From an uncultured Prevotellaceae bacterium (lineage in GTDB: Bacteria > Bacteroidota > Bacteroidia > Bacteroidales > Bacteroidaceae): a stretch of 64,000 nt of DNA. This document shows, piece by piece, positions 18,627 through 36,569 of this stretch; the stretch's first letter is position 1; every line of letters begins with the position of its first letter. Both the position numbers and the translations under genes were made by a program. Under the pieces are notes generated by a model, which was given only the letters and a program-made list of their open reading frames with translations, was not told the DNA's origin and searched no databases. The stretch covers positions 466 through 64,465 of the forward strand of contig CACYNE010000008.1 in NCBI GenBank assembly GCA_902775605.1. The letters are read 5' to 3'.

Positions 18627-21071
18627 TTATTTCACAATCCACTCAAACACGCCTGATGAGAAGTCGTCGGGCTGGGTGACCTCCAGTCGCAGGGCTTTGG
18701 TCTTGACGGGAGAGAAGTTTACCGTGCAGGCCGCACCGCGCGTAGTGGGATAGTGGTCGGCATCCTTCACGGGTTGCCATTGACCCTGGGCGTCTTGATA
18801 GAGGATGCGCCAAGACTTAGGCACACGACAGCCACCCCAGGGAGCATCGTCAAACCAATAGACGGTGCAGGTCTGTACGGTGACCTCGGCAGGAAACTCA
18901 TAGGAGAGCCATTCAGTGCTTGCCTTCTTGGGCCACCAATGGGTGTAGGGGATAGAGCGGTCATTCTCGTCCTTAGGCACCAAGCGGTCGTTGATAGACG
19001 AGAGGGCCGGCACCTTCGAGCTACTGCTCACCTTGCTCTCGCTGGCCAGTGTGGCGGGCTGAGCAGGTGTTGTAGCGCTGAGGTCCTGTGGCAACCATAC
19101 GCGCATCTTGCCAGAGCCACGATGACACCACGCAAAATAAGGAATCAGGGTGAGCTTCTGGTCTGTAATGGTCAGTTTGCCCTGCTTGTTGAAGTCGAGG
19201 GTCTGGGCATCGGTTGTCAGAGTGACCACCGACGTGCCCGCAATCTCTGTCTTTCCCAACTGGAACTGTGGCTCCTGGTTGACCAGTGCAGAGAAGATAT
19301 CGAATGCATTGTCAGGATGTTCGGCACAATACACCAGCGGACCGCGCTCCACGGCCACCATGCCCCTGTCGGCCTCCACCTTGTTCTGGGCACGCACGAT
19401 GCGAGGCTCCATGTCAAAGTGAATCTGCACTTTGTCGCCCTTCTTCCATTTGCGGTCGATAGTGATATAGTCACGGTTTTCGGGATAGAAAGCCTGATTG
19501 TTGACGCTCACGCTATAGCCCAGGCGCTTACCGTCGGCATAGGCATAGAGGTCAGAGGGCACCACCTTGCCCCTCACCCAGCCGGGGATACGGATCTTTA
19601 GGGCAAACTGACCGGCGGTATTCTGGTCGATGGTGATGGTGATGTCGCCATCCCACGGATAGTTGGTCTGTTGCGAGAGCGTCACCTTTTTGCCCTTCAC
19701 ATCAAGTGTGGAGGTGTTTGACAGGAAAAGGTTTACATACACGGAAGCCTCATTAGCCCTATTAGACCCATTCGACCCATCAAGCCTATAAGAATAAATA
19801 TACCCAGGCAACGAAGGAATGAAGCGGCAGATGTTTGATGGACAGCAGGCACAGCCAAACCATGCCTGACGCTGATGCTGTCCCATCGATTCCAATGGAT
19901 TGGGGTAGAAGAAGCCGTTGCCCTGCAGCGAGACGCCGCTGATGAGGCCGTTGTAAAGCGTGCGCTCCAGCACATCATAGTATTTTGACTCGCCGTGAAG
20001 TAGGAACAGGCGGTAGTTCACATACACATTGCCAATGGCTGCACAGGTCTCGCAATAGGCACTCATGTTCGGCAGTTCGTAGTTCTTGCCAAAAGCCTCA
20101 CCACTTGAGGTGGCACCGATGCCGCCAGTGATATAGAGTTTCTTGGTGACGATATTTTCCCAGATGCGGTCGATAGCGTCGATATAGCCCTTGTCGCCAG
20201 TCAGCGCGGCCACATCGGCCATGCCGGCATACATATATGCCGCACGCACGGCATGACCCACAGCCTCATCCTGAAGAACCACGGGTTTGTGACTTTGCGA
20301 ATATTCCTGTTTAATCTGTGTCTTGCCGCGATAGTCGAGGAAGAACTTCGCCTCGTCCAGATATTTCTTCTCGCCAGTGGCCAAGTAGAGGCGACAGAGC
20401 GCCATCTCGGCAATCTGGTGTCCAGGCACCACGCAGGCCTGTCCGGGGTTGGGACCCACCTCTTTGCACACCACATCGGCATAGCGGCGGGCAATGTCCA
20501 GGAACTTCCTGCTGCCTGTGGCTTGCCAATGGGCCACGGCGCCCTCAATCATATGTCCCAGGTTATAGAGTTCATGCGACAGGTCCTCCTCCTTCACCCA
20601 ACGCTTGTCGCCCGCCCAGTGATGCGGGTCGGCGGGGTTTTGCGTACGAGCCGTATAGAGGTAGCCGTCAGGCTCCTGAGCTGTGGCGATGATGTCGATG
20701 ACAGAATCTACATAGTGACGCAGGCGCTTGTCAGGATAGGTCTGCAGCAGATAGGACGCTCCCTCGATGGTCTTATAGGGATCGGTATCGTCGAAGGAAT
20801 AGCCCACGCCGTTTACCTTGAACACCTTTGAGGGATCCTTCAGGTGCTGGGCAGCATTCTCGAAGTTCTTATAGCGCCCCTCACTCTCGCACTTGGAGAA
20901 GGCCAAGGGCACGGTGACGTTGCGACTGGCCTCCAGTCGTTGTCCCCAGAACGTACCGGGTGTCACCTTCACTGCCGTGAAGGGTACGGGAGTGATGGGA
21001 TAGCCCGTCTGCGCTGTAGAGGCAAGAATCGATACATGAAAAGCGATAAGTGATAATAGACTCTTTTTCAT
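18627..21071 (-). CDS. GH127 beta-L-arabinofuranosidase-like protein with C-terminal F5/8-like domain
   Basis: HELYNLGH, GHAVRA, YCETCAAIG, CACCPSN. Confidence 0.9.
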   Translation of the reverse strand: MKKSLLSLIAFHVSILASTAQTGYPITPVPFTAVKVTPGTFWGQRLEASRNVTVPLAFSKCESEGRYKNFENAAQHLKDPSKVFKVNGVGYSFDDTDPYKTIEGASYLLQTYPDKRLRHYVDSVIDIIATAQEPDGYLYTARTQNPADPHHWAGDKRWVKEEDLSHELYNLGHMIEGAVAHWQATGSRKFLDIARRYADVVCKEVGPNPGQACVVPGHQIAEMALCRLYLATGEKKYLDEAKFFLDYRGKTQIKQEYSQSHKPVVLQDEAVGHAVRAAYMYAGMADVAALTGDKGYIDAIDRIWENIVTKKLYITGGIGATSSGEAFGKNYELPNMSAYCETCAAIGNVYVNYRLFLLHGESKYYDVLERTLYNGLISGVSLQGNGFFYPNPLESMGQHQRQAWFGCACCPSNICRFIPSLPGYIYSYRLDGSNGSNRANEASVYVNLFLSNTSTLDVKGKKVTLSQQTNYPWDGDITITIDQNTAGQFALKIRIPGWVRGKVVPSDLYAYADGKRLGYSVSVNNQAFYPENRDYITIDRKWKKGDKVQIHFDMEPRIVRAQNKVEADRGMVAVERGPLVYCAEHPDNAFDIFSALVNQEPQFQLGKTEIAGTSVVTLTTDAQTLDFNKQGKLTITDQKLTLIPYFAWCHRGSGKMRVWLPQDLSATTPAQPATLASESKVSSSSKVPALSSINDRLVPKDENDRSIPYTHWWPKKASTEWLSYEFPAEVTVQTCTVYWFDDAPWGGCRVPKSWRILYQDAQGQWQPVKDADHYPTTRGAACTVNFSPVKTKALRLEVTQPDDFSSGVFEWIVK

Positions 21072-21462
21072 ACCATTTTGGCTTTAGTTTTCTCATTTTT
21101 CAAATGTTCGCCGCAAAGGTACTCAAAATTTGTCTATTTCACGTGAAAACTTCTGAAAAGTTTGGAAAGTTATTTAATGATTCCTAGCATAATTTGTTAT
21201 CAGCATGTTGTGCATATTGCGGATGAGTTGTGGAGTATCATAGGAGATGAAATCAATATCATTCTGGTTTAATGATTCAAAATAGTCCGTATGAGACATT
21301 TTCAATTGCCTACAATACCATCATCAACTCTATGGCTACTGCCATCATAATCTTTTACTCATTCCTGAATATTTTTATTTTAGAAATTCTGCCATATTTT
21401 CTTGATACACGCTGCCGTAGTTGTGAGCATTATAAACCTTGACATGCGAGCCGGATGTGTTC

Positions 21463-21489
21463 TGCGTACGAGCCGTATAGAGGTAGCCG
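21463..21489 (-). repeat. 27-nt exact copy of an internal segment of the GH127 gene (20641-20667)
   Basis: TGCGTACGAGCCGTATAGAGGTAGCCG at both positions. Confidence 0.9.
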
Positions 21490-21508
21490 ACGTCTCAATT
21501 TGTTTTAT

Positions 21509-21783
21509 TTAAGAACAGAAATCATCGGGATATGGTTTATCAGCTGGCATTCTTCCATCTTTTAGTGCCTGATCAATCATCTCCATTGTCCTTCTAATAC
21601 TCTCTTGCATTTCTCGCATTTCCTCAGGAGTTTGAAATCCTCCTGTGGCCTTGTCAAGTTCTTCCTCAGACATTTCCACTACACCTGCTTCTACGAGCTC
21701 GTCGTAGATGGCCTTCATTCTTTTACTTTCTCTGCGAGCAGTTGCTTCTTCTGCTCAATCTGTTCGATTGTCATTTTTGCCAT
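21509..21783 (-). pseudogene. Double-glycine precursor P1 (type A leader), frameshifted
   Basis: MAKMTIEQIEQKKQLLAEKVKE*; 1 nt missing near 21719 relative to paralogues; continues MKAIYDELVEAG..ELDKATGG|FQTPEEM..DDFCS. Confidence 0.75.
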
Positions 21784-21827
21784 TTTTTTTATTTTTTTTG
21801 TTAACTTACGCAACGATGTTTTGTCGT

Positions 21828-22025
21828 TTATTGGAAAACCAACTTATGCTTTTTTATTGCATCCCAATATTTATCAGGATTAGGATTCCCACCTGCAGCC
21901 TCATTGAGGTCCTTCTCGTCAAGGGGCCATGCGCCGGCCTCCACGAGTTCGTCTTTCAGTTGCTTTACTTCTTCAGCCAGTTGCTTCAACTGCTGTTTTT
22001 TCTGCTCAATCTGTTCGTTAGTCAT
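21828..22025 (-). CDS. Double-glycine precursor P2 (type B), core NPNPDKYWDAIKKHKLVFQ
   Basis: Conserved leader ending WPLDEKDLNEAAGG. Confidence 0.88.
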   Translation of the reverse strand: MTNEQIEQKKQQLKQLAEEVKQLKDELVEAGAWPLDEKDLNEAAGGNPNPDKYWDAIKKHKLVFQ

Positions 22026-22066
22026 TGCTACAATGTTTTTTTAATAGATCATTTATTTTTTTCACG

Positions 22067-22261
22067 TTAGGGCATTTCAGCGAATTCCAATACCATCTTG
22101 CGCCAGTTCTCATCAGCAGTGCTTCCGCCAGCTACGTGATTGAGTTCTTCATCGGACATCTCGATAGCACCGGCCTCTACAAGTTCGTCGACGAGGGCTT
22201 TTATTTCCTTTGTTTTCTCTGCGAGCAGTTGTTTCTTCTGCTCAATTTGCTCTGCTGTCAT
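22067..22261 (-). CDS. Double-glycine precursor P3 (type A), core STADENWRKMVLEFAEMP
   Basis: Leader MTAEQIEQKK..IEMSDEELNHVAGG; start reassigned to ATG 22261 by alignment. Confidence 0.88.
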   Translation of the reverse strand: MTAEQIEQKKQLLAEKTKEIKALVDELVEAGAIEMSDEELNHVAGGSTADENWRKMVLEFAEMP

Positions 22262-22302
22262 AGTTCTTATAATGCTTTTTGTTTTAATGATTAATGAGTT
22301 TT

Positions 22303-22500
22303 CTAGAAGTTCCAAGCATCTAGATTTATTGGAGTCAACATTGCCCATAAATCAAGTGCTATACCACCAGTGGCTTTGTCCAAATGTTCTTCAGACAGTT
22401 CTAATGCGCCAGCCTCTACGAGTTCGTTGACGAGGGCTTGCATTTCATTTATTTTCTCTGCGAGCAGTTGTTTCTTCTGCTCAATTTGCTCTGTTGTCAT
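22303..22500 (-). CDS. Double-glycine precursor P4 (type A), core IALDLWAMLTPINLDAWNF
   Basis: Leader ending LELSEEHLDKATGG. Confidence 0.88.
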   Translation of the reverse strand: MTTEQIEQKKQLLAEKINEMQALVNELVEAGALELSEEHLDKATGGIALDLWAMLTPINLDAWNF

Positions 22501-22523
22501 AATATAAAAATGGTTTTAGAATC

Positions 22524-22745
22524 TTACATAAATTTGTGGGGGAACGGATTAAGATGTGGATTATGCTTATCTACAGGCCTTATGTCCGGTATATATAATC
22601 CTCCTGCTGCATCGTTAAGGTCTTTCTCGTCAAAGGGCCATGCTCCGGCTTCAACGAGTTCGTCCTTCAATTGCTTTACTTCTTCAGCCAGTTGCTTCAA
22701 CTGCTGCTTCTTCTGTTCTATCTGTTCGGTTGTTAATGTAGCCAT
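22524..22745 (-). CDS. Double-glycine precursor P5 (type B), core LYIPDIRPVDKHNPHLNPFPHKFM
   Basis: Leader ending WPFDEKDLNDAAGG. Confidence 0.88.
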   Translation of the reverse strand: MATLTTEQIEQKKQQLKQLAEEVKQLKDELVEAGAWPFDEKDLNDAAGGLYIPDIRPVDKHNPHLNPFPHKFM

Positions 22746-22758
22746 AATCTTAAAGTAT

Positions 22759-22944
22759 TTAAAAGAATTTTCTTTTTATGTCGCGGAACACGGGATAACC
22801 TCCAGCGGCTTCGTCAAGTTCGCTTTCAGACAATTCGATTGCACCTGCCTCTACGAGTTCGTCATAGATGGCCTTCATTTCCTTTGTTTTCTCTGCGAGC
22901 AGCTGTTTTTTCTGCTCTATCTGTTCGGTTGTTAATGATGCCAT
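22759..22944 (-). CDS. Double-glycine precursor P6 (type A), core YPVFRDIKRKFF
   Basis: Leader ending IELSESELDEAAGG. Confidence 0.88.
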   Translation of the reverse strand: MASLTTEQIEQKKQLLAEKTKEMKAIYDELVEAGAIELSESELDEAAGGYPVFRDIKRKFF

Positions 22945-22985
22945 GATGCTTAATATATTAATGGTGATTATTATGAGGAAGGAAA

Positions 22986-23222
22986 TTAAAGAAAGGTAGG
23001 ACCCTTCGGTCTCTCGGGTTTCGTTGGTTTCCTTGAATCCCAGAACTCTCCAGCGCCACCTTTCAGAATACTTCCAGCCTGAACGCCTCCAGCGGCTTCG
23101 TCAAGTTCGCTTTCATCAAGGGGCCATGCACCAGCCTCTACTAATTCGTCCTTCAACTGCTTTGCTTCTTCAGCCAACTGTTTCAGTTGCTGCTTTTTCT
23201 GCTCAATCTGTTCTGCTGTCAT
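22986..23222 (-). CDS. Double-glycine precursor P7 (type B), core VQAGSILKGGAGEFWDSRKPTKPERPKGPTFL
   Basis: Leader ending WPLDESELDEAAGG. Confidence 0.88.
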   Translation of the reverse strand: MTAEQIEQKKQQLKQLAEEAKQLKDELVEAGAWPLDESELDEAAGGVQAGSILKGGAGEFWDSRKPTKPERPKGPTFL

Positions 23223-23279
23223 AATCGTAAGTCTTTAATAATTCATTTTAAAATAAATGACCAAACTTCTGAAGTGCCT

Positions 23280-23450
23280 CTAATACACCAGGAAGAAGAC
23301 CCCCCCCCCTGTGCTCTTTTCTAGTTCTTCCTCAGACAATTCAATTGCACCTGCCTCTACGAGTTCGTCGTAGATGGCCTTCATTTCCTTTGTTTTTTCT
23401 ACGAGCAGTTGTTTCTTCTCTTGAATCTGCTCTGATGTTAATGTTGCCAT
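23280..23450 (-). CDS. Double-glycine precursor P8 (type A, 56 aa, absent from ORF track) with G10 tract at the GG site
   Basis: Manual translation MATLTSEQIQEKKQLLVEKTKEMKAIYDELVEAGAIELSEEELEKSTGG|GVFFLVY*. Confidence 0.85.
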   Translation of the reverse strand: MATLTSEQIQEKKQLLVEKTKEMKAIYDELVEAGAIELSEEELEKSTGGGVFFLVY

Positions 23451-23562
23451 AATACTTAAATTTTTTATTGTGATTATTAGGTGGATAGGGTTGCGCCTTC
23501 CCGTGACAGTTTACTCGTCGCCGTCCCATGTCGGGATTCAGCCGATGCCCGTCAGTCGGATT

Positions 23563-23748
23563 TCACATTAGTGGGCCCCACAGGTGCCAGTCTCGTATCC
23601 ATCCTCCAGCAACGTTCTCAAAGTCTTCTTCAGACAACTCTATCGCTCCGGCATCCACCAGTTCCTTGGTGAGGGCTTGCGCTTCTTCTGTCAACTGTTT
23701 CAATTGCTGCTTCTTCTGTTCAATCTGTTCTGCTGTCATTGTTGCCAT
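23563..23748 (-). CDS. Double-glycine precursor P9 (B/A hybrid leader), core WIRDWHLWGPLM
   Basis: KKQQLKQL front half, IELSEEDFENVAGG back half. Confidence 0.85.
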   Translation of the reverse strand: MATMTAEQIEQKKQQLKQLTEEAQALTKELVDAGAIELSEEDFENVAGGWIRDWHLWGPLM

Positions 23749-23784
23749 TATTGTATTGTTTTTAAATTGCGTTTATCTATATTA

Positions 23785-24024
23785 TCAGAGCAACCACCAC
23801 CGACCACGTTGCAAATTCTCCCAGTCTCTTTCGGCTTTTTCTAAACCTGGAGGTGTAACTCCACGCGGAACCTTCTTCCCTCCTGCTGCCTCGTTGAGGT
23901 CGTTGTTATCCAAGGGCCATGCTCCGGCTTCCACCAGCTCGTTTTTCAGTCCCATCACTTCTTCAGCCAGTTGCTTCAACTGCTGCTTCTTCTGTTCAAT
24001 CTGCTCTGCTGTTAATGTTGCCAT
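23785..24024 (-). CDS. Double-glycine precursor P10 (type B), core KKVPRGVTPPGLEKAERDWENLQRGRWWLL
   Basis: Leader ending WPLDNNDLNEAAGG. Confidence 0.88.
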   Translation of the reverse strand: MATLTAEQIEQKKQQLKQLAEEVMGLKNELVEAGAWPLDNNDLNEAAGGKKVPRGVTPPGLEKAERDWENLQRGRWWLL

Positions 24025-24057
24025 GATCTTAAAGTTTTTAATTTAATTGGTTATTTG

Positions 24058-24258
24058 TTATTCACTTTTTTCTTTTGATTGTTCCCCTGCTTGCCGCAGT
24101 TTTTCGCGCATCTCCATATTCTCGTTGATAAACTTCTCTAAATGGACGTTATTATCACTGACGCGCCACCTATAATATATTAAGGTGAACACCAGGCCGA
24201 GGACCACCATGACGATGGCTACTCCCAAGGCTACTGAAATGACAAATGATACTTCCAT
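24058..24258 (-). CDS. Small single-TM membrane protein (66 aa), first gene of the precursor operon
   Basis: Hydrophobic stretch VSFVISVALGVAIVMVVLGLVFTLIYY then a charged helix; lies downstream of the -7 box at 24285-24292. Confidence 0.7.
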   Translation of the reverse strand: MEVSFVISVALGVAIVMVVLGLVFTLIYYRWRVSDNNVHLEKFINENMEMREKLRQAGEQSKEKSE

Positions 24259-24284
24259 GTTGTTTTGTTGTTTGATTTCGGATG

Positions 24285-24351
24285 CAAAGTTACGGAGAGT
24301 TGGCAAAACAAGTGTCCCACTATAGGAAAACCATGTCCCAAATCAGGAAAA
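24285..24351 (-). promoter_or_regulatory. Promoter with tandem 21-bp-period operator repeats
   Basis: TAACTTTG box (24285-24292); TGTCCCA..GGAAAA at 24313 and 24334. Confidence 0.8.
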
Positions 24352-24353
24352 TC

Positions 24354-26066
24354 TTACGAATTCTCTGATTTTTTGGCGTTTGTCACCTGACGATACTCTG
24401 TGCATGTCATGCCGTAGGCATTACGGAAGAGGCGTGCCAGGGTAGAACGGCTGGGTATGCCCGACAACTCGCCGATAACGGCAATGGAATCGTCGGTGGC
24501 CTTCAGCAGACGGGCAACATGCTCCAGACGGTAGCGGGTGATGAAGTCATTGACTGTTTCGCCGTGTGAACACTCGCGGATAGCCTGCTCAACATACTTC
24601 GCGTTAGTGGCGAGCATCTGGGCAAGTGTATCGCGGTTCAGCGTCTCGTCGGTATAAGGTTTTTGCTCGGCCATGAGGTCACAGATGCGGCGGAAAAGCT
24701 GTTGCTCAGTAGTGAGACGTTCCTCGGGCTCTGCCTTCAACTGCTCGATGGCCTGCTGCTCCTCCTGTTCACGCTGTTCTATCTCGGCCACCAAGCGACG
24801 GTTCTTTTCAAGGAGCACCTTGTTATATCTGGCAGTTCGCCAGAACAGGTAACCTATGAGCAGGCTGATGAGTGCGGCAGCAATGGCGAGGATGCGATAG
24901 ATAGTGGACTTGGTCTCTTCGTCCTTCAGCAGCATCTCTTTCTCCTGCGTCTTCATCTGCTGGGCATACTTCAGTGTCTCTGCCTGACGCTCGCGCTGCA
25001 CCAGACTGTCTGTCAATACTATATTGCGCAAGAGTTGCTCGTATGCCTCATGACTCTTTCCAATCTTGTCTAAGCCCATAGCGTAGGTTTTCAACCACGA
25101 TGCATAATCTATGGAGATGGTATCCATACGCTCTTTGTAGTAGGGCTCCAAGACTGCACAGATTTGGCTGATGCGCTGGCTGCTTCCGGAGAGAATATAA
25201 TAACTCAGAATGTCGCTCTGATGATCTGGGAGCTGACTGCATGGGAGATTCTCGAAAAGCTGTGCACTATGGCTGGCAGCAGCTTTGTCACCCAGCTGGT
25301 ACTGGCAGTAGGCCATAATGCTATAGATATATGCACGCTGTTGGTCAACAAAGCCAGCTGGCGCGGTGGTATATTCTTTCTCGATACGGTCAATCACTGG
25401 CAAACGCTCCTCAGTGAGTTTCAAAGCGCGGGCAAAGTCCCCATGGTTAATGGCATGACGCGCCACGCTGCCAAGATAGGCTGAGAACATCGGCATGGCT
25501 TGGATGTTGGTGCTACCACGGAACAGATCCAGCGAGCGGTCTAGATACTCGACGCCGCTGCCGGTCTGCACCTTTTCCATCGTCTCTCCCGCTTCAAAAT
25601 AGAACATGGCCTCCTCGCCATTCCAGCCATACTCATGTGCTATCTTTGCACCCTCGATGGCATAGCTGATGGCATCCTGGTATGTCTTTGAATCTTTGTT
25701 GCCGATAGAAGTCAACAGATGGTAGGTTCTGACGCGCTGCAGACTGTCTGGTGCCTGGTCCTGATTGTTCAGAATGGCCATACAATACTCGCGTGCTTTA
25801 TCAATATCTTCCTTTGAGCCTTTCACTAAATAAATCTGGGCTCGCATCCAGTTGGCATAGTTTGCGTCGGCTACCCCCTTCATCTGGGCAGTGTCCACCA
25901 GTCCGAGGGCATGCTCTGGCTGTACCATTATTGACTGGCGGATGTACTCCCATGTATAGATACTATCGGCCTCGGAGCCCTGCTCCGTATTACCATGATT
26001 TGTGCACCCTACCATCAGAGACAGTAAGGTGCACAGTATGAACACACTCTTTTTAATCATTTTCAT
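24354..26066 (-). CDS. Membrane-anchored AraC-family regulator with helical (TPR-like) extracytoplasmic sensor
   Basis: N-terminal signal ending LMVGC, long helical region, TM ILAIAAALISLLIGYLFW, C-terminal HTH (LAQMLATNAKY..RYRLEHVARLL..LFRNAYGMTCTEYR). Confidence 0.88.
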   Translation of the reverse strand: MKMIKKSVFILCTLLSLMVGCTNHGNTEQGSEADSIYTWEYIRQSIMVQPEHALGLVDTAQMKGVADANYANWMRAQIYLVKGSKEDIDKAREYCMAILNNQDQAPDSLQRVRTYHLLTSIGNKDSKTYQDAISYAIEGAKIAHEYGWNGEEAMFYFEAGETMEKVQTGSGVEYLDRSLDLFRGSTNIQAMPMFSAYLGSVARHAINHGDFARALKLTEERLPVIDRIEKEYTTAPAGFVDQQRAYIYSIMAYCQYQLGDKAAASHSAQLFENLPCSQLPDHQSDILSYYILSGSSQRISQICAVLEPYYKERMDTISIDYASWLKTYAMGLDKIGKSHEAYEQLLRNIVLTDSLVQRERQAETLKYAQQMKTQEKEMLLKDEETKSTIYRILAIAAALISLLIGYLFWRTARYNKVLLEKNRRLVAEIEQREQEEQQAIEQLKAEPEERLTTEQQLFRRICDLMAEQKPYTDETLNRDTLAQMLATNAKYVEQAIRECSHGETVNDFITRYRLEHVARLLKATDDSIAVIGELSGIPSRSTLARLFRNAYGMTCTEYRQVTNAKKSENS

Positions 26067-26070
26067 TAGT

Positions 26071-26103
26071 TCACTTCTTTTTCTCAATCTGTTCGTTAGT
26101 CAT
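26071..26103 (-). pseudogene. Truncated precursor-leader relic MTNEQIEKKK*
   Basis: ATGACTAACGAACAGATTGAG identical to the P2 start; stop 4 nt before the regulator ATG. Confidence 0.7.
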
Positions 26104-26114
26104 AATTATAGAGT

Positions 26115-26321
26115 CTAAAAAAAGTTTTTCGTATATTGTTCTAATATATTCCCAATGATGGGAGGTATTCCTTTGCTTCCAGCAGCCTCGTCAAGGTCAT
26201 TTTCGTTAAGGGGCCATACTCCAGCCTCTACGAGTTCATCGTAGATAGCCTTTATTTCCTTTACTTTCTCTGCGAGCAGTTGTTTCTTTTGCTCAATCTG
26301 TTCGTTAGTCATTGTTGCCAT
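26115..26321 (-). CDS. Precursor P11 (A/B hybrid leader, GS site), core KGIPPIIGNILEQYTKNFF
   Basis: KKQLLAEK front half, WPLNENDLDEAAGS back half. Confidence 0.85.
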   Translation of the reverse strand: MATMTNEQIEQKKQLLAEKVKEIKAIYDELVEAGVWPLNENDLDEAAGSKGIPPIIGNILEQYTKNFF

Positions 26322-26352
26322 AATACTTATTGCTTTATTTTTTTTCGTTAAA

Positions 26353-28341
26353 TTACCATATCTTTACGCGGTCCTCGGGCTTGAGGTACAGTTTGTCCGT
26401 GGGCTGCACGTCGTAGAGACGGTACCAGTCATCAAAGAGGCGGACGATGCCGTTAACGCGGTTGTGACCTGCGGAGTGTACATCACCGGTGAGCATTTCC
26501 GCCAGTGCATCCACGCTACGTTCGCTGTCCGTGAGAGCGACGGGAAGTCCATATGCGAGCCAGAACTTCTTAAGCTGGGCGTCGAACTGTTCCCCAGTGA
26601 AACCCTGCTGGCGCAAACGGGCACTATAAGCCTCGATGGCCAGTGTGACGCCACCATAGTCGGCCATGTTCTCGGGGAGGGTCTTCTGTCCGTCGGCCGG
26701 TTGTCCGGGATATTGCTCCAGTTGGTTCCAGAGGGCAACGAGCTGTTGTTGTTTGGCCTGGAAGGCCTCCTTGTCGGCAGCTGTCCACCAGTCGCGTTTG
26801 GATCCCATCTCGTCGTATTGCGAGCCGGCGGCATCAAATCCGTGGCACATCTCATGGCCAAAGACCGCAGCAGTACCGTAGAGCGTTGCCTCGCTCAGGG
26901 AGGTGTCGAAAATAGGAGTAATCAGGAACGCAGGAAGGATGACCAGCTGGTTACTATTCGGAGAGTATGTGGCATTAAAGGTTGTGAAGGATGTGTAAGT
27001 ACACCAGAAGTCCCAGCCGTTGGTGGTGATGCTCTTCCCTACCATCTTGCGGATAGCGGCCGTCTGATGGCGGCGCAGGCTGCCGACGGCCTCGAGCAGC
27101 GTGTTCCCCTCGATGATGGGGGTCATTTCGTCGTTCCACTCGTCAGGATAGCCGATGAAAAAGAGCATACTGTCCAGTTTCTTCCGGGCGGCCAGCTTCG
27201 TTGTTGTACTCATCCACTCAAGGCCGTCAATGCGCTCGCGGAATATGCTGCGGAATTCCTCCATGATTTCTGCACAGCGCTCCTTATGGATGTTCTGCGG
27301 GCCAAATGCTTCTACCTGAAGGTGAAACATATGGTATTTGGCATGGAGCATGGCATACCTCATGCGGATGATACTTTGTAACGAAGGCGAAAGCGTGTGG
27401 ATATAAAACATGTCAGAGGTGAAGACGTAGGCTATCAGGTAGTCGCGCATCTTGGCCACACTCTCTTCGCTGCCCTCCAGCAGCATGCCCATCAGCTGCT
27501 CCATGGCCTCGCTTTCTTCCTCATCGTCGATGTCCTGCATCTGGTCGGCCAGGTCGCCGATGCCCATCAGCTGACATACCTGACGGCACGCTGTAGAGGC
27601 ACCGCGGGTCTCAGCCCGGGTCACCGGAGCCTGCGGGCGGAGCATCCTGTTGAACCCCCTGTCGTAGGCCAGCATCTCTATTTTTTCTACGGCCAGTGCG
27701 TTCGCCACTATCTCCGCGATGCGCTCTTTGCTGATGTCCAGCTTGGCCAGCCAGCTGCAACCGGCCGACAAGTTGTTGGCCAGCATCTCCTCGTTTTTCC
27801 TGTTGAAGGCATCTATAACGACAAGGGACGGCAACTCGGACGTTAAATAAGGACCCATCATTCTTTGCTCGGCGAAGGCCACCAGGCGCACGACAGGACT
27901 GTAACCCCACTGGTGCAGCTGCGCGAAGGCCTCCAGCAGTTCCTCTTGCGTCGTAATGGCCGATAGGCGGTCTATGCGTTCCTTCAGCAATGCCATGTCG
28001 GCGGCATCGTCGGTCTCGCCTGCTGTTGCCAACTGTCTGAGGGTCACAATGGCCGGGTCGTCGGAGTTAGCCAACACCTCTGCCTCTATCCCTGACAGTT
28101 TCTGCATAGTAATAGTCGACATTGCCTGTAGTTGGTTGTCGGCAAGCCACTTGCCATACTGATACCTGAAGAAGTCATCGCCAGGACGAACTGATGTGTC
28201 GATGTACTGGTCGTAGTTGAACGGCTTGTCGTCGGTCACCACCACGGGCACGGGATTGTCGTTGTCGTCGGTACACGATGTTAGCACCGTCATGGTCATC
28301 ATCAGCGTTAAGGCCGCTGCCAGCATTAAAATCTTTTTCAT
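26353..28341 (-). CDS. M13 (PepO/neprilysin-like) zinc endopeptidase lipoprotein
   Basis: Lipobox LTSC followed by TDDNDN; RPGDDFF, NATY, HEMCHGFD, ENMADYGG. Confidence 0.92.
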   Translation of the reverse strand: MKKILMLAAALTLMMTMTVLTSCTDDNDNPVPVVVTDDKPFNYDQYIDTSVRPGDDFFRYQYGKWLADNQLQAMSTITMQKLSGIEAEVLANSDDPAIVTLRQLATAGETDDAADMALLKERIDRLSAITTQEELLEAFAQLHQWGYSPVVRLVAFAEQRMMGPYLTSELPSLVVIDAFNRKNEEMLANNLSAGCSWLAKLDISKERIAEIVANALAVEKIEMLAYDRGFNRMLRPQAPVTRAETRGASTACRQVCQLMGIGDLADQMQDIDDEEESEAMEQLMGMLLEGSEESVAKMRDYLIAYVFTSDMFYIHTLSPSLQSIIRMRYAMLHAKYHMFHLQVEAFGPQNIHKERCAEIMEEFRSIFRERIDGLEWMSTTTKLAARKKLDSMLFFIGYPDEWNDEMTPIIEGNTLLEAVGSLRRHQTAAIRKMVGKSITTNGWDFWCTYTSFTTFNATYSPNSNQLVILPAFLITPIFDTSLSEATLYGTAAVFGHEMCHGFDAAGSQYDEMGSKRDWWTAADKEAFQAKQQQLVALWNQLEQYPGQPADGQKTLPENMADYGGVTLAIEAYSARLRQQGFTGEQFDAQLKKFWLAYGLPVALTDSERSVDALAEMLTGDVHSAGHNRVNGIVRLFDDWYRLYDVQPTDKLYLKPEDRVKIW

Positions 28342-28362
28342 CTTTCAGTATTTCTTGATATA

Positions 28363-28953
28363 TTATTCAATTTTGCCGGTACTGATCTGGTTTCCGTCCT
28401 TGTCGAAGGTGTAGGTCTTGTTCAGCACGCCGCCGCGACGCTCCCATGCCTCGGTATATGCAGCCAGTTTATCGCCGCTGGTGCTGGCGTGGGTGGAGGC
28501 AGAGCCCGTGAAATCGACGGTCTTTCCCCAGGCTTTCTCGGCTTTGGTGGTGATGCCCTCGATGTAGAGCAGGTTGCTGACGGGATAGATATTGCTGATG
28601 CGGACGCCTTCGAGCTGGGCATCCTCCTTCACCTTCACGCTGACCTTCAAGCCGAAGGTAGCGGGGAACTGGGTGCTGCTCACGCCTTTCATCCACGTGG
28701 CCGTGCCGTCTTTCGTTGTCCACGTGGCCTGTTCGGTCGTCAGCTCACCGTTGATGCCGTAGTAGGTCATGGTATAGTCGCACAACTGCGCCATCTGCTC
28801 GTCTACACTGAAGAGATAGCGTGCAGCGATGCCCTTGATTTCCGTCGTGTTAGGCGTGTTGTTTTCGTCATCGTCGCTTCCGCAGGCGGTGAATACTGTC
28901 GTTGTCATTGCGCAGCAAAGGACGGCTGCGAGCGTTATCAAAAATTTCTTCAT
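28363..28953 (-). CDS. Hypothetical surface lipoprotein
   Basis: Lipobox FTAC followed by GSDDDEN. Confidence 0.8.
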   Translation of the reverse strand: MKKFLITLAAVLCCAMTTTVFTACGSDDDENNTPNTTEIKGIAARYLFSVDEQMAQLCDYTMTYYGINGELTTEQATWTTKDGTATWMKGVSSTQFPATFGLKVSVKVKEDAQLEGVRISNIYPVSNLLYIEGITTKAEKAWGKTVDFTGSASTHASTSGDKLAAYTEAWERRGGVLNKTYTFDKDGNQISTGKIE

Positions 28954-28989
28954 TGTTGATAGAATTTAATATTATTACCTAGTTATATA

Positions 28990-31269
28990 TTATAAGCGGA
29001 TGAGGGTGGAACCGAGGTTGCCCACCTGTACGGCATAGACGCCAGCGGCGAATCCTGAGAGGCTGACGCTGCCATTGTCGCAGATAGTCTTAAGGACAGG
29101 ACGGCCACTGAGGTCATAAATGGTCACGGCGGCGGCTTCCAAGCCGTCAATGTAGAGGGTGCGGCCAGCGACGCGGAATTTGACACCAGCAGGCTGATGA
29201 TTACTGAGTTCGGGGATGCTGGTGCCAAGGCCCAGAATATCCAGCAGACCGGCGTATGCATCAATCTCGCCCCAACCGTAATAGACATTCTTGTCGGTAC
29301 CGCTGAACTCGGGTTCGGGCTGGTGGCTGGTGCGCTCGATGACGCCGAGGATGTCTTCGGGTGTGAGGTCGGGCTTGGCTTGCAGCCAGAGGGCGATGAT
29401 GCCGGCGGTGATGGGCGACGACATGGAGGTACCGCTCATGGCCCATACGGCGTAGTCGTTGCCGAAGACGTTTTTATAGTAGGGCATCAGAGGGATGGTC
29501 TCGTCGCGGGTGGCCTGCAGGTCGTGATTATTGCGGTAGAAGCTGTTGAGGGCGGAGATGATGTTGTGGCCGGGGGCTACGACGTCGGGCTTCACGCGGC
29601 CGTCGAGGGTGGGACCGCACGAGCTGAAGCTGACGAGCGTGCCCTCCTGGCTGCCTGCGGGGTAGGAAGAATTGGTCTCTCCCCAGATGTTGGTGAACTG
29701 CGAGCGGTGGTGCATGGCGCCGACGGTGATGATGCGCTCCATGCTGGCTGGGTAGCCGACGGTGCATTTCTGGCAGCCGCGCGAGTTTTCATCGTTTTCT
29801 TCCGAGAAGGCCACAGTCTCGCCTTGGATGGAGGCGCCCATCATCTGGATTTCCACGGGGTCTTCGATGAGAATCTTGCCGTTGGTCTGCATCCAGCCGT
29901 CTTCGTAGGTGATGGACTCCGCATAGTCGTTCAGGGGCATCAGCATGATTTTAATGGCTATCTTATCGTTAGCTAAGATATCCGCAGAGACGGTCATCTC
30001 CACTTCGGGTTTCTCGACCACGAGAGTATCCCCGGCCTGGGCGGCGGCAATGGCGTCGCGGGTGTCGAAGAAGAGCGTGTCGGGCGCGTCGCGGAGGGTG
30101 ACGCCTACGCGGAAGTCAGAGGCAGACATGTCGGCGCGCAAGTTCATGTAGAATCTATCGGTATAGCCATAGTAATAGACATCCTGCTCCAGTGGCGTGT
30201 AGGCATCTTTTTCCACATAGGTCTTCTCGCCGCCTTCGTTGCCGGCCGAGGCCACGACGATGCGGCCCGGACCCACAAGGCGGTTGAACACCTGTTCGTA
30301 GAGCGTGCCGTCATAATAGAAGTCGGGAGGGGCGCCAAAGCTCCAGTTCACTACGCAGGGCTGTCCGGCGGCGTCGGCCTGCTGGAAAATCTTGCAGAGT
30401 TCCACAAGAAGGATGGTGTCATACATATCTATTTGAAGAATGGCATCCTTGACGTTCTGAAAGCCCATGATATGGCTTATCAAGAACTCGCGCAGGGCAT
30501 CCATCCACTCGTCATCCACCTGCCCTAAAGGGATATAGGCACCCATGATGTCGGCCTCGGGAGCCATGCCCACGTAGCGGCCGTCCAGTCCGTTGCCGGC
30601 CATCGAGCCCAGCACATGGGTGCCGTGGTTTTGCACGTCGGCATCTATGCTGTGGCGGGCGGCCAGCACCTCGGCGGGCGTGGCGTATATCATGCCGAAG
30701 GTGTCGTTGTTGGCGTGGGGGGCCGTCGGGTCCCAGAACCATTTGATGCGCGAGGTGCCGTCGTCGTTGCGGAAGGCAGGATGGGTAAAGTCGAAGCCCA
30801 CGTCCATCACGGCGGCGATGACGCCCTTGCCGGTGAAGGCCTGGGGCAACTGCGACTGACCATTCCACACCTTGTCGGCACCGATGATGACGGCGCTGGT
30901 GTCGTTATGCAGCGTCGCGGGCTTGTTGGCCTCCAAACGCAGGATGGTGCTGCTCTGTTCCATGACACCGAGGCTGTCCATGGGCAGGAAGGCGGCACAG
31001 ATGCCCTCGCCGAAGTCCTGAACCACCACGCCGCCCTTCTCACGAAGGCTCTGCGCTTGGTCGGTGCTCTCCACCAGCGTCAGCATATACTTCATCACGG
31101 GGCGGCCCTGTGTGCGCAGCCTGCCGCCACTCTGCTTCACCGCCTCTTGCTGCTGCCGATACTGACCACGCAGCCAGGGCGACATCTTCGATGGTTTCGG
31201 GAGGCCTTGCGCCTCGATGGCCATTGCGCAGCAGAGGACGGCTGCGAGCGTCATAAAAAACTTCTTCAT
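28990..31269 (-). CDS. S8 subtilisin-like serine protease with T9SS tail
   Basis: Triad motifs VMDVGFD, HGTHV, GTSMSSP; SAGNEG; tail IYDLSGR..AGVYAVQV. Confidence 0.92.
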   Translation of the reverse strand: MKKFFMTLAAVLCCAMAIEAQGLPKPSKMSPWLRGQYRQQQEAVKQSGGRLRTQGRPVMKYMLTLVESTDQAQSLREKGGVVVQDFGEGICAAFLPMDSLGVMEQSSTILRLEANKPATLHNDTSAVIIGADKVWNGQSQLPQAFTGKGVIAAVMDVGFDFTHPAFRNDDGTSRIKWFWDPTAPHANNDTFGMIYATPAEVLAARHSIDADVQNHGTHVLGSMAGNGLDGRYVGMAPEADIMGAYIPLGQVDDEWMDALREFLISHIMGFQNVKDAILQIDMYDTILLVELCKIFQQADAAGQPCVVNWSFGAPPDFYYDGTLYEQVFNRLVGPGRIVVASAGNEGGEKTYVEKDAYTPLEQDVYYYGYTDRFYMNLRADMSASDFRVGVTLRDAPDTLFFDTRDAIAAAQAGDTLVVEKPEVEMTVSADILANDKIAIKIMLMPLNDYAESITYEDGWMQTNGKILIEDPVEIQMMGASIQGETVAFSEENDENSRGCQKCTVGYPASMERIITVGAMHHRSQFTNIWGETNSSYPAGSQEGTLVSFSSCGPTLDGRVKPDVVAPGHNIISALNSFYRNNHDLQATRDETIPLMPYYKNVFGNDYAVWAMSGTSMSSPITAGIIALWLQAKPDLTPEDILGVIERTSHQPEPEFSGTDKNVYYGWGEIDAYAGLLDILGLGTSIPELSNHQPAGVKFRVAGRTLYIDGLEAAAVTIYDLSGRPVLKTICDNGSVSLSGFAAGVYAVQVGNLGSTLIRL

Positions 31270-31328
31270 AATAACCTTTTTTAAATTATTAAATTATTCA
31301 AGGTTTTAATTCTTCAATTTTATATTAG

Positions 31329-33335: not shown

Positions 33336-33347
33336 GTTTTTGAATGA

Positions 33348-36476: not shown

Positions 36477-36569
36477 CAAATTTACGTTGCTTCTGAAAAA
36501 CAGATGTGTCATGGCTGGAAAAATATGTCCCAAAACTGGGAAAAATCATTTTTTCAATGTTTTGAGACA
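36477..36569 (-). promoter_or_regulatory. Promoter with the same tandem operator repeats plus an inverted copy
   Basis: TAAATTTG box (36477-36484); repeats at 36505 and 36526; TGAGACA at 36563. Confidence 0.8.

Follow-up and report, generated by a model that had tools for sequence, protein, structure and literature searches.

Tandem double-glycine leader precursors with unrelated cores in a rumen Prevotellaceae genome, and a predicted C39 exporter acting in trans

Double-glycine (GG) leader peptides characterised so far are mostly bacteriocins. In the blp and pln loci of streptococci and lactobacilli, several unmodified GG peptides with one PCAT act as toxins and inducing pheromone under dedicated regulation; these loci encode an immunity protein per toxin and a histidine kinase with its response regulator, and their leaders are ~20 aa long. 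A different layout is found in the NHLP/Nif11 'NHLM' systems, including the prochlorosin libraries (Haft et al. 2010), which use a three-gene export cassette (TIGR03794, TIGR03796, TIGR03797) and in which a long conserved GG leader precedes unrelated cores in many paralogous precursors, possibly far from the exporter. Cyanobacterial GG clusters (Wang, Fewer and Sivonen 2011; NF038167) hold multiple GG precursors near C39-ABC/HlyD genes, often without modifying enzymes. GG precursors with PCAT, membrane-fusion and outer-membrane export, and the bacteroidetocins, are reported from Bacteroidales, the order of the host studied here (PMC10352776; PMC6671954). The gene clusters treated in detail in PMC10352776 encode rSAM or YcaO enzymes, and their leaders are short (27 residues in the P. 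gulae example). Bacteroidetocins, going by the abstract of PMC6671954, are one conserved class-IIa-like toxin family and not a hypervariable library, and in this they would differ from the peptides described below. Neither this leader family nor tandem rumen Prevotella arrays appear in the retrieved passages of the two papers, and a literature search returned general accounts of GG motifs associated with PCATs in Bacteroidales, and surveys of class II bacteriocins, with no description of the leader family.

The initial annotation of the window (the whole 64,000-nt stretch of DNA analysed here) described ten tandem constant-leader genes at 21509-24024. We found all ten small ORFs on the minus strand at these coordinates, but the count needs amending, as there is an eleventh copy at 26115-26321 and the tenth gene is frameshifted. 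The precursor genes are as follows.

23785..24024, minus strand: precursor g1, 79 aa, with a subtype-A leader of 49 aa and a 30-aa core
23563..23748, minus strand: precursor g2, 61 aa, with a hybrid A/B leader and a 12-aa Trp-rich core
23280..23450, minus strand: precursor g3, 56 aa here, with a 7-aa core
22986..23222, minus strand: precursor g4, 78 aa, with a subtype-A leader of 46 aa and a 32-aa Pro/Lys-rich core
22759..22944, minus strand: precursor g5, 61 aa, with a subtype-B leader and a 12-aa basic core
22524..22745, minus strand: precursor g6, 73 aa, with a subtype-A leader and a 24-aa Pro/His-rich core
22303..22500, minus strand: precursor g7, 65 aa, with a subtype-B leader and a 19-aa acidic/hydrophobic core
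22067..22261, minus strand: precursor g8, 64 aa from the conserved start, with a subtype-B leader and an 18-aa acidic core
21828..22025, minus strand: precursor g9, 65 aa, with a subtype-A leader and a 19-aa core
21509..21783, minus strand: precursor g10, frameshifted, with a 5' remnant (21715-21783) and a 69-aa ORF (21509-21718)
26115..26321, minus strand: eleventh precursor g0, 68 aa, with a subtype-B/A hybrid leader and a 19-aa core

Judged by their sequences, the small peptides encoded by g1-g10 are double-glycine leader precursors in which one common 46-49 aa leader ending in GG is followed by unrelated tails. Leaders of the array genes without g10, plus the copy at 26115-26321, are on average 65% identical in pairwise comparison (range 49-91%), with 16 invariant columns in the ten-sequence alignment, and the cores are 19% identical, the level of shuffled cores (20.5 +/- 9.3%). 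The leader repeat is recognisable at the DNA level in 11 copies, and its edge coincides with the GG codons, in agreement with the earlier observation that similarity ends abruptly after GG. All ten array genes and all 200 family members that could be split have the GG. The alignment also bears out the PCAT-type hydrophobic residues proposed at -12 (Leu, Met or Phe) and -7 (Leu, Phe once); position -15 is an invariant Ala and -4 is weakly hydrophobic (Ala, Val or Thr).

Core comparison among the array genes revealed no conserved residue or motif. The cores are short, span acidic to basic compositions and are unlike known class II bacteriocins or microcins. Only one Cys occurs in all window cores together, and 173 unique family cores contain 13.1% Pro, 0.6% Cys and 2.3% Ala and are not Ser/Thr-rich. 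Being Pro-rich (13%) and Cys-poor, the cores are probably linear peptides. We also asked whether they might be pieces of larger proteins; when every core was compared with the complete genome by tblastn, no match below E 0.1 appeared.

The cores had been described as unrelated and 7-42 aa long; the first point stands, but both length extremes have particular origins. The 7-aa core of g3 depends on a G10 tract at 23300-23309 that is absent from seven other strains, where the site reads GGGGGATT(T/A)TTT and g3 encodes 67 aa with an 18-aa core. The tract is unchanged in contigs of the best-matching metagenome run, possibly the source sample. The 42-aa core belongs to g10, which has a 1-nt deletion near 21718 common to all 8 sequences compared. 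Its 22-aa 5' remnant overlaps the 69-aa ORF through an ATGA start/stop, and in this ORF a start codon, the final 27 residues of the leader, GG and the core are preserved. Frames are intact in the other nine of the ten array genes. The leader of g0 ends in GS in the window and in GG in other strains.

The window itself lacks an exporter. Exactly one C39 domain was found in the genome, on another contig (C45), so the earlier remark that no exporter lies nearby is true for the window. It is less of a puzzle than it seemed, since the C39 cassette on C45 has its own precursor and arrays abut the same cassette in nine relatives. The cassette is NHLP-type, in the order HlyD, C39-ABC, second ABC, adaptor and TolC-like, the second adaptor and the TolC-like OEP protein coming after the ABC genes. 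The C39-ABC protein scored 892.6 bits against TIGR03796 (cut-off 853.3), the second ABC protein 698.6 bits against TIGR03797 (cut-off 709.4), and HlyD matched TIGR03794 partially (113 bits). Six homologues all have Cys42, which lies in a conserved ECGAAS stretch, and His114; we take these two residues to be the C39 catalytic pair. The twelfth precursor of the genome lies 230 nt upstream of the HlyD gene, and its leader is 76% identical to that of g6. In the nine related rumen Prevotellaceae loci, 2-8 leader genes are located directly upstream of the cassette, and in cultured Xylanibacter ruminicola KHT3 arrays and exporter are on separate contigs, the same split as here. Processing of the array peptides in trans by the C45 transporter, the sole C39 transporter and one with a cognate precursor, is thus strongly supported by genomics, in line with the earlier suggestion; the possibility of a genome without a C39 transporter has fallen. 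When the C39 domain (residues 28-175 of this transporter; alignment of 6 rows) was modelled in complex with the aligned precursors, the score was 0.13, the mark being 0.32, which counts neither for nor against recognition.

In a sample of the genus the cassette is more widespread than the leader. It scored above cut-off in 21 of 401 genomes, and the 400-genome genus sample contained two other clearly leader-positive genomes, both with an above-cut-off cassette (adjacent in one). Another 18 genomes of this sample have the cassette without the array leader family, indicating that the exporter is not specific to it. No leader matches were found in a 300-genome sample across the GTDB family, which speaks for rarity in that sample and not for absence.

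We scanned the ten peptides against Pfam and NCBIfam, and no family was reached above cut-off except for one borderline match: g8 alone scored 16.0 bits (cut-off 15.7) against the generic GG-signal model TIGR01847, which matches 1 of 95 family members at E below 0.1. The ten genes had no match to TIGR03798 (Nif11) or TIGR03793 (NHLP) at E up to 1; among the 95 members, one matched the former (E 0.014) and none the latter. TIGR04149 was approached by one gene only (14.5 bits, cut-off 25), in a genome without a SPASM domain. The cyanobacterial CTB model NF038167 was the most frequent weak match, in 20 of the 95 members and confined to the last 15-20 leader residues; the best window gene stayed at 19.6 bits (cut-off 32).

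These results place the array beside described systems without merging it with any. It shares with NHLM systems the cassette and the precursor logic. Its leader, however, is shorter and fits neither of the Nif11 and NHLP models; LanM, cyclodehydratase and rSAM enzymes were not found here; its cores contain little Cys and much Pro; its host is a member of the Bacteroidota from the rumen; and its cassette has two additional genes, one for a second adaptor and one TolC-like. The cyanobacterial clusters resemble it in their multiple precursors and frequent lack of modifying enzymes, but belong to another phylum and have another leader architecture, the likeness being limited to the residues just before GG. 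Unlike blp and pln loci, the array is accompanied by a single small TM protein and by a TPR-TM-AraC regulator of the one-component type. What is new is the leader family; the kind of secreted-peptide system to which it belongs is already known.

At 90% identity the family falls into 1,831 clusters, and at 50% it still contains at least 371 core types. Each array peptide falls within a 90% cluster, and clusters occur on up to 55 contigs; the exact g6 protein is on 55, and the g1 cluster has 10 members on many contigs. All genome matches, and all runs containing the stretch, are from ruminant or other animal gut, the animal-gut metagenome runs coming from 12 studies and being mostly labelled bovine. 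Orthologous arrays in other rumen assemblies from several studies are 98% identical, and several core types recur in other species, where their identity is 45-83%. Examples include core homologues of g4 (69%) and g9 (67%), and a g1 homologue that keeps 77% of the core behind the other leader subtype.

A comparison of substitutions in leader and core, as had been proposed, was run. Leader pN/pS is 0.4, conversion tracts counted, and within the population the core changes are 0 synonymous and 10 non-synonymous (2 of them the g3 tract). Between species, dN/dS of the g1 core is ~1.6; the leader of the homologue is of the other subtype, and its synonymous sites are saturated. In g6, synonymous differences between strains cluster in leader codons 10-19 and look like a gene-conversion tract. 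Structural variation is weak evidence: g7 is absent from related contig L041, which may be repeat collapse, and the gap in the L042 array is a run of N inside g7. Taken together, the substitution figures indicate cores that are shuffled as modules and are under no strong purifying selection, the pattern that molecules in an arms race would be expected to show. The only sign of expression comes from a few contigs of depth 2 to 3 in RNA libraries, which could contain DNA; they cover g2-g5 (g2 at low depth), and the uncovered parts of the stretch are uninformative on expression.

Upstream of g1 are the following features.

24058..24258, minus strand: small single-pass membrane protein, 66 aa from the conserved ATG, first gene of the predicted operon
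24285..24350, minus strand: promoter region with two TTTCC-spacer-GGGACA repeats and a -7 box
24354..26066, minus strand: membrane-anchored regulator, 570 aa

The two operator-like repeats lie 21 nt apart, and behind them comes the Bacteroidota -7 box TAnnTTTG (24285-24292). The minus strand has no second such box from there down to 21121, which suggests that the small membrane-protein gene and g1-g10 form one operon. A sigma-70 promoter/terminator scan, whose consensus does not apply to Bacteroidota, gave no more than shuffled sequence did, and Rfam models had no match in 20900-26500. Elsewhere in the genome the tandem operator occurs just three times, twice at promoters of BspA-LRR genes in the window. 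Looser copies precede a 977-aa lipoprotein and a paralogue of the small membrane protein on contig C32. The small protein matched no Pfam family, and its homologues precede arrays or exporters in related genomes. The regulator, between g0 and the operon, consists of a lipoprotein-type signal, a ~370-aa TPR-like outer domain, one TM helix, a coiled coil and a cytoplasmic AraC-type HTH. Its gene is rich in synonymous differences only within a recombination tract of 400 nt.

We propose a four-step explanation. First, the promoter upstream of the small membrane-protein gene would drive that gene and g1-g10, its tandem operator probably being bound by the adjacent regulator. Second, the helical leader would be recognised by the C39 domain of the C45 transporter, as the genomic evidence strongly supports, and cut after GG, and the core would be exported in trans across both membranes by the HlyD/C39-ABC/second ABC/adaptor/TolC-like machinery. 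We regard these two steps, a single operon with C39 cleavage and export in trans, as highly probable. Third, the cores would leave the cell as linear, unmodified, Pro-rich peptides of ~12-42 aa, which is fairly likely. Fourth, and here we are guessing, they may form an extracellular cocktail of microcin-like antagonistic peptides directed against related rumen bacteria, with core diversity kept by leader-mediated recombination and relaxed or diversifying selection. This last step is tentative and somewhat doubtful, with signalling as its main alternative. An antagonistic role is weakened by the lack of per-peptide immunity genes, none having been found with the array, and by cores unlike known class II bacteriocins and microcins; the membrane sensors and regulators that flank related loci also count against it. 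Taken as a whole, export followed by antagonism has a little under an even chance of being right.

Signalling would involve the same export and cleavage, but the peptides would be sensed by the TPR-like ectodomain of the adjacent AraC regulator, or in other genomes by a TPR-TM-SpoIIE phosphatase with an RsbW/RsbV-like pair. The output would be a small regulon including the array and surface LRR lipoproteins, amounting to peptide quorum sensing or kin signalling in Gram-negative Bacteroidota. The build and position of the regulator fit this, and regulators of the same build recur within 4 kb of leader genes in other genomes (9 AraC and 6 SpoIIE among 121 neighbours). However, adjacency is a weaker argument than it seems at first, because the genome encodes many paralogous TPR-TM-output proteins, at least 10 of them SpoIIE-type, and the related loci are not independent of each other. 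The cytoplasmic half of the regulator is 41% identical to that of the regulator beside the L012 array, and the two ectodomains have diverged beyond BLAST detection. Compared by BLAST with the TPR-TM-SpoIIE proteins of L026 and L036, the ectodomain showed only insignificant similarity, which does not support a shared sensor domain. The sharing of the tandem operator with few promoters, including those of the two BspA-LRR genes, would fit a small common regulon, but no operator was found at the exporter locus on C45. Secreted peptidases, common peptide-signalling outputs, are also among the 121 neighbours (C11 5, C10 4, M13 3). The cores themselves, being short, Pro-rich, chemically diverse and free of immunity genes, would suit signals; yet at least 10 different peptides face one adjacent sensor, and the precedent of characterised GG-leader peptides is mostly on the side of bacteriocins. 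On balance we consider signalling unlikely, though a serious candidate. A fuller version is a multi-peptide communication system, in which cores would be read by fast-evolving TPR ectodomains of single-pass regulators (AraC here, SpoIIE with the RsbW/RsbV-like switch in relatives), the small membrane protein would be a feedback partner, and the regulon would comprise surface LRR lipoproteins and secreted peptidases behind an operator at four to six promoters. This we hold to be quite unlikely.

Apart from export with antagonism and from signalling, the array could encode prochlorosin or Nif11/NHLP-type RiPP precursors, whose cores would be modified before the same export by one or more promiscuous enzymes of another class or encoded in the unassembled 14% of the genome. 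One leader with many cores is prochlorosin logic, and NCBIfam labels the export cassette as NHLP-type; such systems reportedly serve modified peptides as a rule. At the distant locus L036, genes for several GT8 glycosyltransferases and for a methyltransferase stand among precursors with divergent leaders, and some family members may therefore be modified. No homologue of either L036 enzyme was found in the genome, which is 86% complete, so that a modifying enzyme could sit in the missing part. The genome search proposed earlier, which recovered C39-ABC and HlyD on C45, found no SPASM domain, and LanC-like (LANC_like) and YcaO domains were likewise not found. Lanthipeptide or azole chemistry is unlikely, as already argued, because no LanC or YcaO domain was found and the cores are so poor in Cys. 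In the four array-plus-cassette loci inspected ORF by ORF (L006, L012, L022 and L026) no enzyme gene lies between array and exporter, L036 being the exception. The cores offer an enzyme no common residue or motif as target, and the Nif11 and NHLP models match almost none of the family. We judge modification of this kind improbable.

Least probable, and very unlikely, is that the array is a leftover, a precursor cassette that was duplicated and that a rearrangement parted from its exporter, with neutral core drift and products not exported: the frameshifted g10, the disrupted g3 core, the second Gly of g0 lost here, the all non-synonymous core changes (compatible with neutrality) and the distance from the exporter would fit, but all frames except one of the ten are intact, with 98% conservation between assemblies of several rumen studies, the leader is constrained in its invariant columns and its pN/pS, several core types persist across species, the exporter is intact with its catalytic residues, KHT3 has the same split layout, and even g10 retains a start codon, the exporter-proximal leader half and GG.

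Prevotella is widely regarded as the dominant rumen bacterial genus, and to our knowledge almost nothing has been reported on how rumen Prevotella species compete or communicate. The family is invisible to Pfam and NCBIfam and is therefore missed by current genome mining. With a constant leader and an identified exporter, the mature peptides can be predicted exactly and synthesised, and a cultured carrier exists in X. ruminicola KHT3; it thus becomes directly testable whether they are Pro-rich antimicrobials that survive rumen proteolysis or signals. The system also provides a leader and an exporter that naturally belong together and through which Bacteroidota could be made to secrete short peptides of any sequence.

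Ten small genes lie on the minus strand at 21509-24024 (ORF listing and direct reading), all beginning with a common acidic leader of 46-49 aa, in which Gln, Lys and Leu are abundant and the last two residues are Gly-Gly. Pairwise leader identity averaged 65% (range 49-91%; eleven window copies, gene 10 excluded), and 16 columns were invariant in a ten-sequence precursor alignment that takes in the copy on contig C45 of the same genome. The tails after Gly-Gly, here called cores, shared 19% identity on average, compared with 20.5 +/- 9.3% for shuffled cores. The repeat finder placed 11 leader copies at the DNA level, spaced 199-298 nt, with one repeat edge exactly on the Gly-Gly codons. The pattern of a constant leader followed by unrelated cores, which the initial annotation had described as breaking off at Gly-Gly, is therefore real and far above chance. 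Its expectation of hydrophobic residues at -12 and -7 was borne out by Leu, Met or Phe at the first position and Leu at the second, matching the double-glycine consensus. The leaders form two subtypes that roughly alternate along the array, with gene 2 a hybrid of both (alignment and repeat analysis). The array shows the defining features of double-glycine/PCAT substrates; its match to the generic signal model was inconsistent.

Features of the array and its upstream region:
Gene 10: split by a 1-nt deletion into a 22-aa remnant and a 69-aa ORF, with the remnant's stop overlapping the ORF's start
23300-23309: G10 tract of gene 3, at the GG codons, giving a 7-aa core in the window
24058-24258: small single-pass membrane protein, 66 aa, immediately upstream of the array
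Upstream of the small membrane protein gene: regulator, 570 aa
24285-24292, same strand as the array: Bacteroidota -7 box TAnnTTTG, the only such box ahead of the array
24313-24350, 36477-36543 and 40524-40590, minus strand: tandem operator sites
26115-26321: eleventh copy (g0), upstream of the regulator gene, ending Gly-Ser in the window and Gly-Gly in other strains

The reported count of ten genes stands, with gene 10 frameshifted and g0 to be added. The 69-aa ORF of gene 10 retains the last 27 leader residues, GG and a 42-aa core. Its deletion was common to all eight sequences compared (window and seven other assemblies), so the frameshift is neither recent nor a sequencing error. At the gene 3 tract, seven other strains have GGGGGATT(T/A)TTT, which yields an 18-aa core; the 7-aa core is thus a strain-specific frameshift product. 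For the same reason we rejected G10 as a conserved phase-variable tract. The G10 form was confirmed in contigs of the DNA run that best matched the stretch, and the other allele was found in one RNA-library contig. Both extremes of the 7-42 aa core range given earlier come from frameshifted genes. In the related locus L006 (5351-7093), four GG peptides with short leaders (~25 aa) share one array with six long-leader ones, directly upstream of an exporter. Export may therefore not need the leader's long N-terminal helix, a point relevant to the truncated gene 10.

The source genome (2.99 Mb, 83 contigs, 86% complete; the window is contig C8) gave one match in a whole-genome Pfam C39 search, on contig C45. 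The genes there, numbered along C45 separately from the array genes, are:
Gene 1: twelfth precursor of the window leader family, leader 76% identical to that of array gene 6
Gene 2: HlyD-type adaptor, 278 aa, partial TIGR03794
Gene 3: C39-ABC transporter, TIGR03796, 892.6 bits (cut-off 853.3)
Gene 4: second ABC transporter, without peptidase, TIGR03797, 698.6 bits (cut-off 709.4)
Gene 5: second membrane-fusion protein, RND_mfp (TIGR01730) / HlyD_3
Gene 6: TolC-like protein, Pfam OEP

In NCBIfam, this cassette is named for NHLP-type bacteriocin systems. Within the C39 domain, the presumed catalytic residues Cys42 and His114 do not vary among six homologues. The initial annotation had remarked that no exporter lay near the array, and had allowed that the genome might lack a C39 transporter. 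The first remark holds locally, C45 being another contig; C39-ABC and HlyD genes are nevertheless both present in the genome, and the cassette with its own precursor solves the central puzzle. Nine related loci have 2-8 leader genes immediately upstream of this cassette (HlyD, C39-ABC, ABC2, adaptor, TolC), and several of these loci start with a gene homologous to that of the small membrane protein in the window. The canonical order is thus small membrane protein gene, precursor array and exporter, which in the source genome is split in two. Arrays (L005 and L038) and exporter (L049) are likewise on separate contigs in Xylanibacter ruminicola KHT3. From the leader-cassette linkage we infer that the C45 exporter acts in trans on the window array. 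On contig C1 (153598-153753; L048:7599-7754), an orphan 51-aa gene with an unrelated 26-aa GG leader and a 25-aa Pro-rich core sits between an apparent lipoate-protein ligase gene and dxs, as judged from translations; its product is likely a further substrate of the single C39 transporter.

Every window peptide falls in a 90% identity cluster made up of several variants, and identical proteins were seen on as many as 55 contigs. Orthologous arrays of other rumen assemblies are ~98% identical across 5 kb. The runs that contained the array stretch were animal-gut metagenomes, mostly labelled bovine, from 12 studies. In two RNA libraries, contigs of depth 2-3 spanned genes 2-5, which hints weakly at transcription. 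Among six strains, leaders carried 9 synonymous and 14 non-synonymous changes, concentrated in genes 6 and 7 in a pattern resembling gene conversion by paralogous leaders. Cores carried 0 synonymous and 10 non-synonymous changes, two of the ten from the gene 3 tract. A second species has a homologue of array gene 1 in which 77% of the core is retained (pS 0.11, dN/dS ~1.6) under a leader of the other subtype; cores are thus modules that pass from one leader to another. In the comparison of leader and core dN/dS that the initial annotation had proposed, the homologue's leader was saturated at synonymous sites. The cores are free of strong purifying selection, with relaxed and diversifying selection indistinguishable at such small counts. 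Several core types recur across species at 45-83% identity and are thus not junk. A search of the cores against the source genome ruled out that they are fragments of larger proteins encoded there.

The regulator combines a lipoprotein-type signal, a ~370-aa TPR-like outer domain, one TM helix, a coiled coil and an AraC-type HTH. Two operator-like repeats, 21 nt apart, precede the TAnnTTTG box of the array. The operator is a tandem TTTCC-spacer-GGGACA with a 21-nt period and the box at a fixed distance after it. Only four copies of the tandem form exist across the 3-Mb genome: at the array promoter, at the promoters of two BspA-type LRR genes inside the window that encode lipoproteins, and at one site on C20 (C20:61431). 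Looser copies on other contigs (C19:15709 and C32:22538) lie ahead of the genes for a lipoprotein of 977 aa and for a small membrane protein paralogue. These operator sites look like a small regulon under the neighbouring AraC-type regulator. Six strains aligned over 5 kb differ at ~110 sites, 52 of which fall at the 3' end of the regulator gene (24400-24800, AraC HTH region), probably a recombination tract with a diverged allele.

In related loci, which are not mutually independent, 121 genes other than those of the exporter neighbour leader genes at a distance of up to 4 kb; the commonest families among them were AraC HTH (9/121), SpoIIE phosphatase with a TPR-like N-terminus (6/121), GT8 glycosyltransferase (6/121), Peptidase C11 (5/121), HU-HIG (5/121), Peptidase C10 (4/121), BspA LRR (4/121) and Peptidase M13 (3/121). 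These parallel the window's own M13, S8 and S41 peptidases and LRR genes. Upstream of the array on its strand, 26353-35207 and 40691-42784 hold a peptidase run (M13, a 196-aa unknown, S8, M13, S41), with S9/DPP-IV further on; the peptidases are likely secreted. In related genomes, too, peptidases (C10, C11, M13, M6 and S8) are repeatedly found no more than 4 kb from leader genes. Three related loci, L012 (10433-11152), L026 (10600-11007) and L036 (10292-13065), have an RsbW-like kinase gene between array and exporter. A STAS protein was also read in two of them, L012 and L036, and L026 and L036 encode a TPR-TM-SpoIIE phosphatase; these genes form a partner-switching module that replaces the AraC regulator. 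In KHT3 (L049:4514-4945), the small membrane protein homologue precedes the exporter and is followed by a second TM-plus-coiled-coil protein with a C-terminal GG-type motif and a 9-aa tail; a homologue in L006 (4441-4779) is similarly extended. The small membrane protein family may be a membrane-anchored substrate or partner of the transporter.

In the best-supported chain, which is very probable as far as export, the operon would be transcribed from the operator-bearing promoter, the single C39-ABC transporter would recognise the leader and cleave it after GG, and the cores would be exported via a HlyD/TolC-type conduit; they are then probably released as linear Pro-rich peptides. For their role outside the cell, we tentatively favour antagonistic, microcin-like peptides, given what characterised GG peptides lead one to expect, the number and hypervariability of the cores and their lack of purifying selection. 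The cores could instead be signals that the membrane regulators sense through their TPR ectodomain, a somewhat doubtful reading. The regulators stand where immunity genes would, the cores are short and chemically diverse, and the operator regulon is shared. The sensor link between regulators and array is at the level of a suggestion, since the related loci are not independent and TPR-TM-output proteins are a large paralogous family in the source genome.

That the cores are RiPPs modified in trans is unlikely. The 86%-complete genome contains no SPASM domains, which the initial annotation had proposed to seek, and no LanC-like or YcaO domains, in line with its doubts about lanthipeptide or azole chemistry. 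The same doubts fit the nearly Cys-free cores it described, with one Cys in total across the window and 0.6% in 173 unique family cores (Pro 13.1%, Ala 2.3%; median length 21 aa, range 5-57). Residue 1 of these cores is mostly hydrophobic or aromatic, and no common residue or motif was found as a tailoring-enzyme target. Four other array-plus-cassette loci with ORFs read have no enzyme gene between array and exporter. The lack of tailoring enzymes and of a common target suggests that the products are probably linear peptides, with the incomplete genome and one exception, L036, as caveats. In this water-buffalo rumen MAG (L036:255-9443), the region upstream of the same exporter has precursors with divergent leaders interleaved with a methyltransferase gene and ~seven paralogous genes for GT8-like glycosyltransferases, of which Pfam confirmed one. 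It may be a glycosylated branch of the family; the source genome contains no homologues of these glycosyltransferases or the methyltransferase. That the array is a decaying remnant is very improbable, with core types persisting across species.

A profile of the ten genes matched 1,831 protein clusters at 90% identity and 371 at 50% identity among 1.84 billion representatives (260/371 at E < 1e-10). The leader family is sharply bounded. A species-level genome collection gave 36 loci, nearly all MAGs with rumen or ruminant in the record title; two are from cultured X. ruminicola KHT3. In a 400-genome sample of the genus, only two genomes besides the source genome were clear carriers; both have the cassette above cut-off, adjacent to the leader in one. 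The cassette was above cut-off in 21/401 genomes. Family tests for Nif11/NHLP leaders, lanthipeptide libraries, TIGR04149 and CTB matched none of them to the window family. Papers retrieved by full-text search cover the GG-motif/PCAT association in Bacteroidales, bacteroidetocins and class II bacteriocin surveys; the leader family and its arrays appear in none of them. The feature is real and biologically coherent. Its leader is a new family in a system of a kind already known, resembling NHLP/Nif11-type systems and cyanobacterial double-glycine clusters in having one exporter, one leader and many cores.
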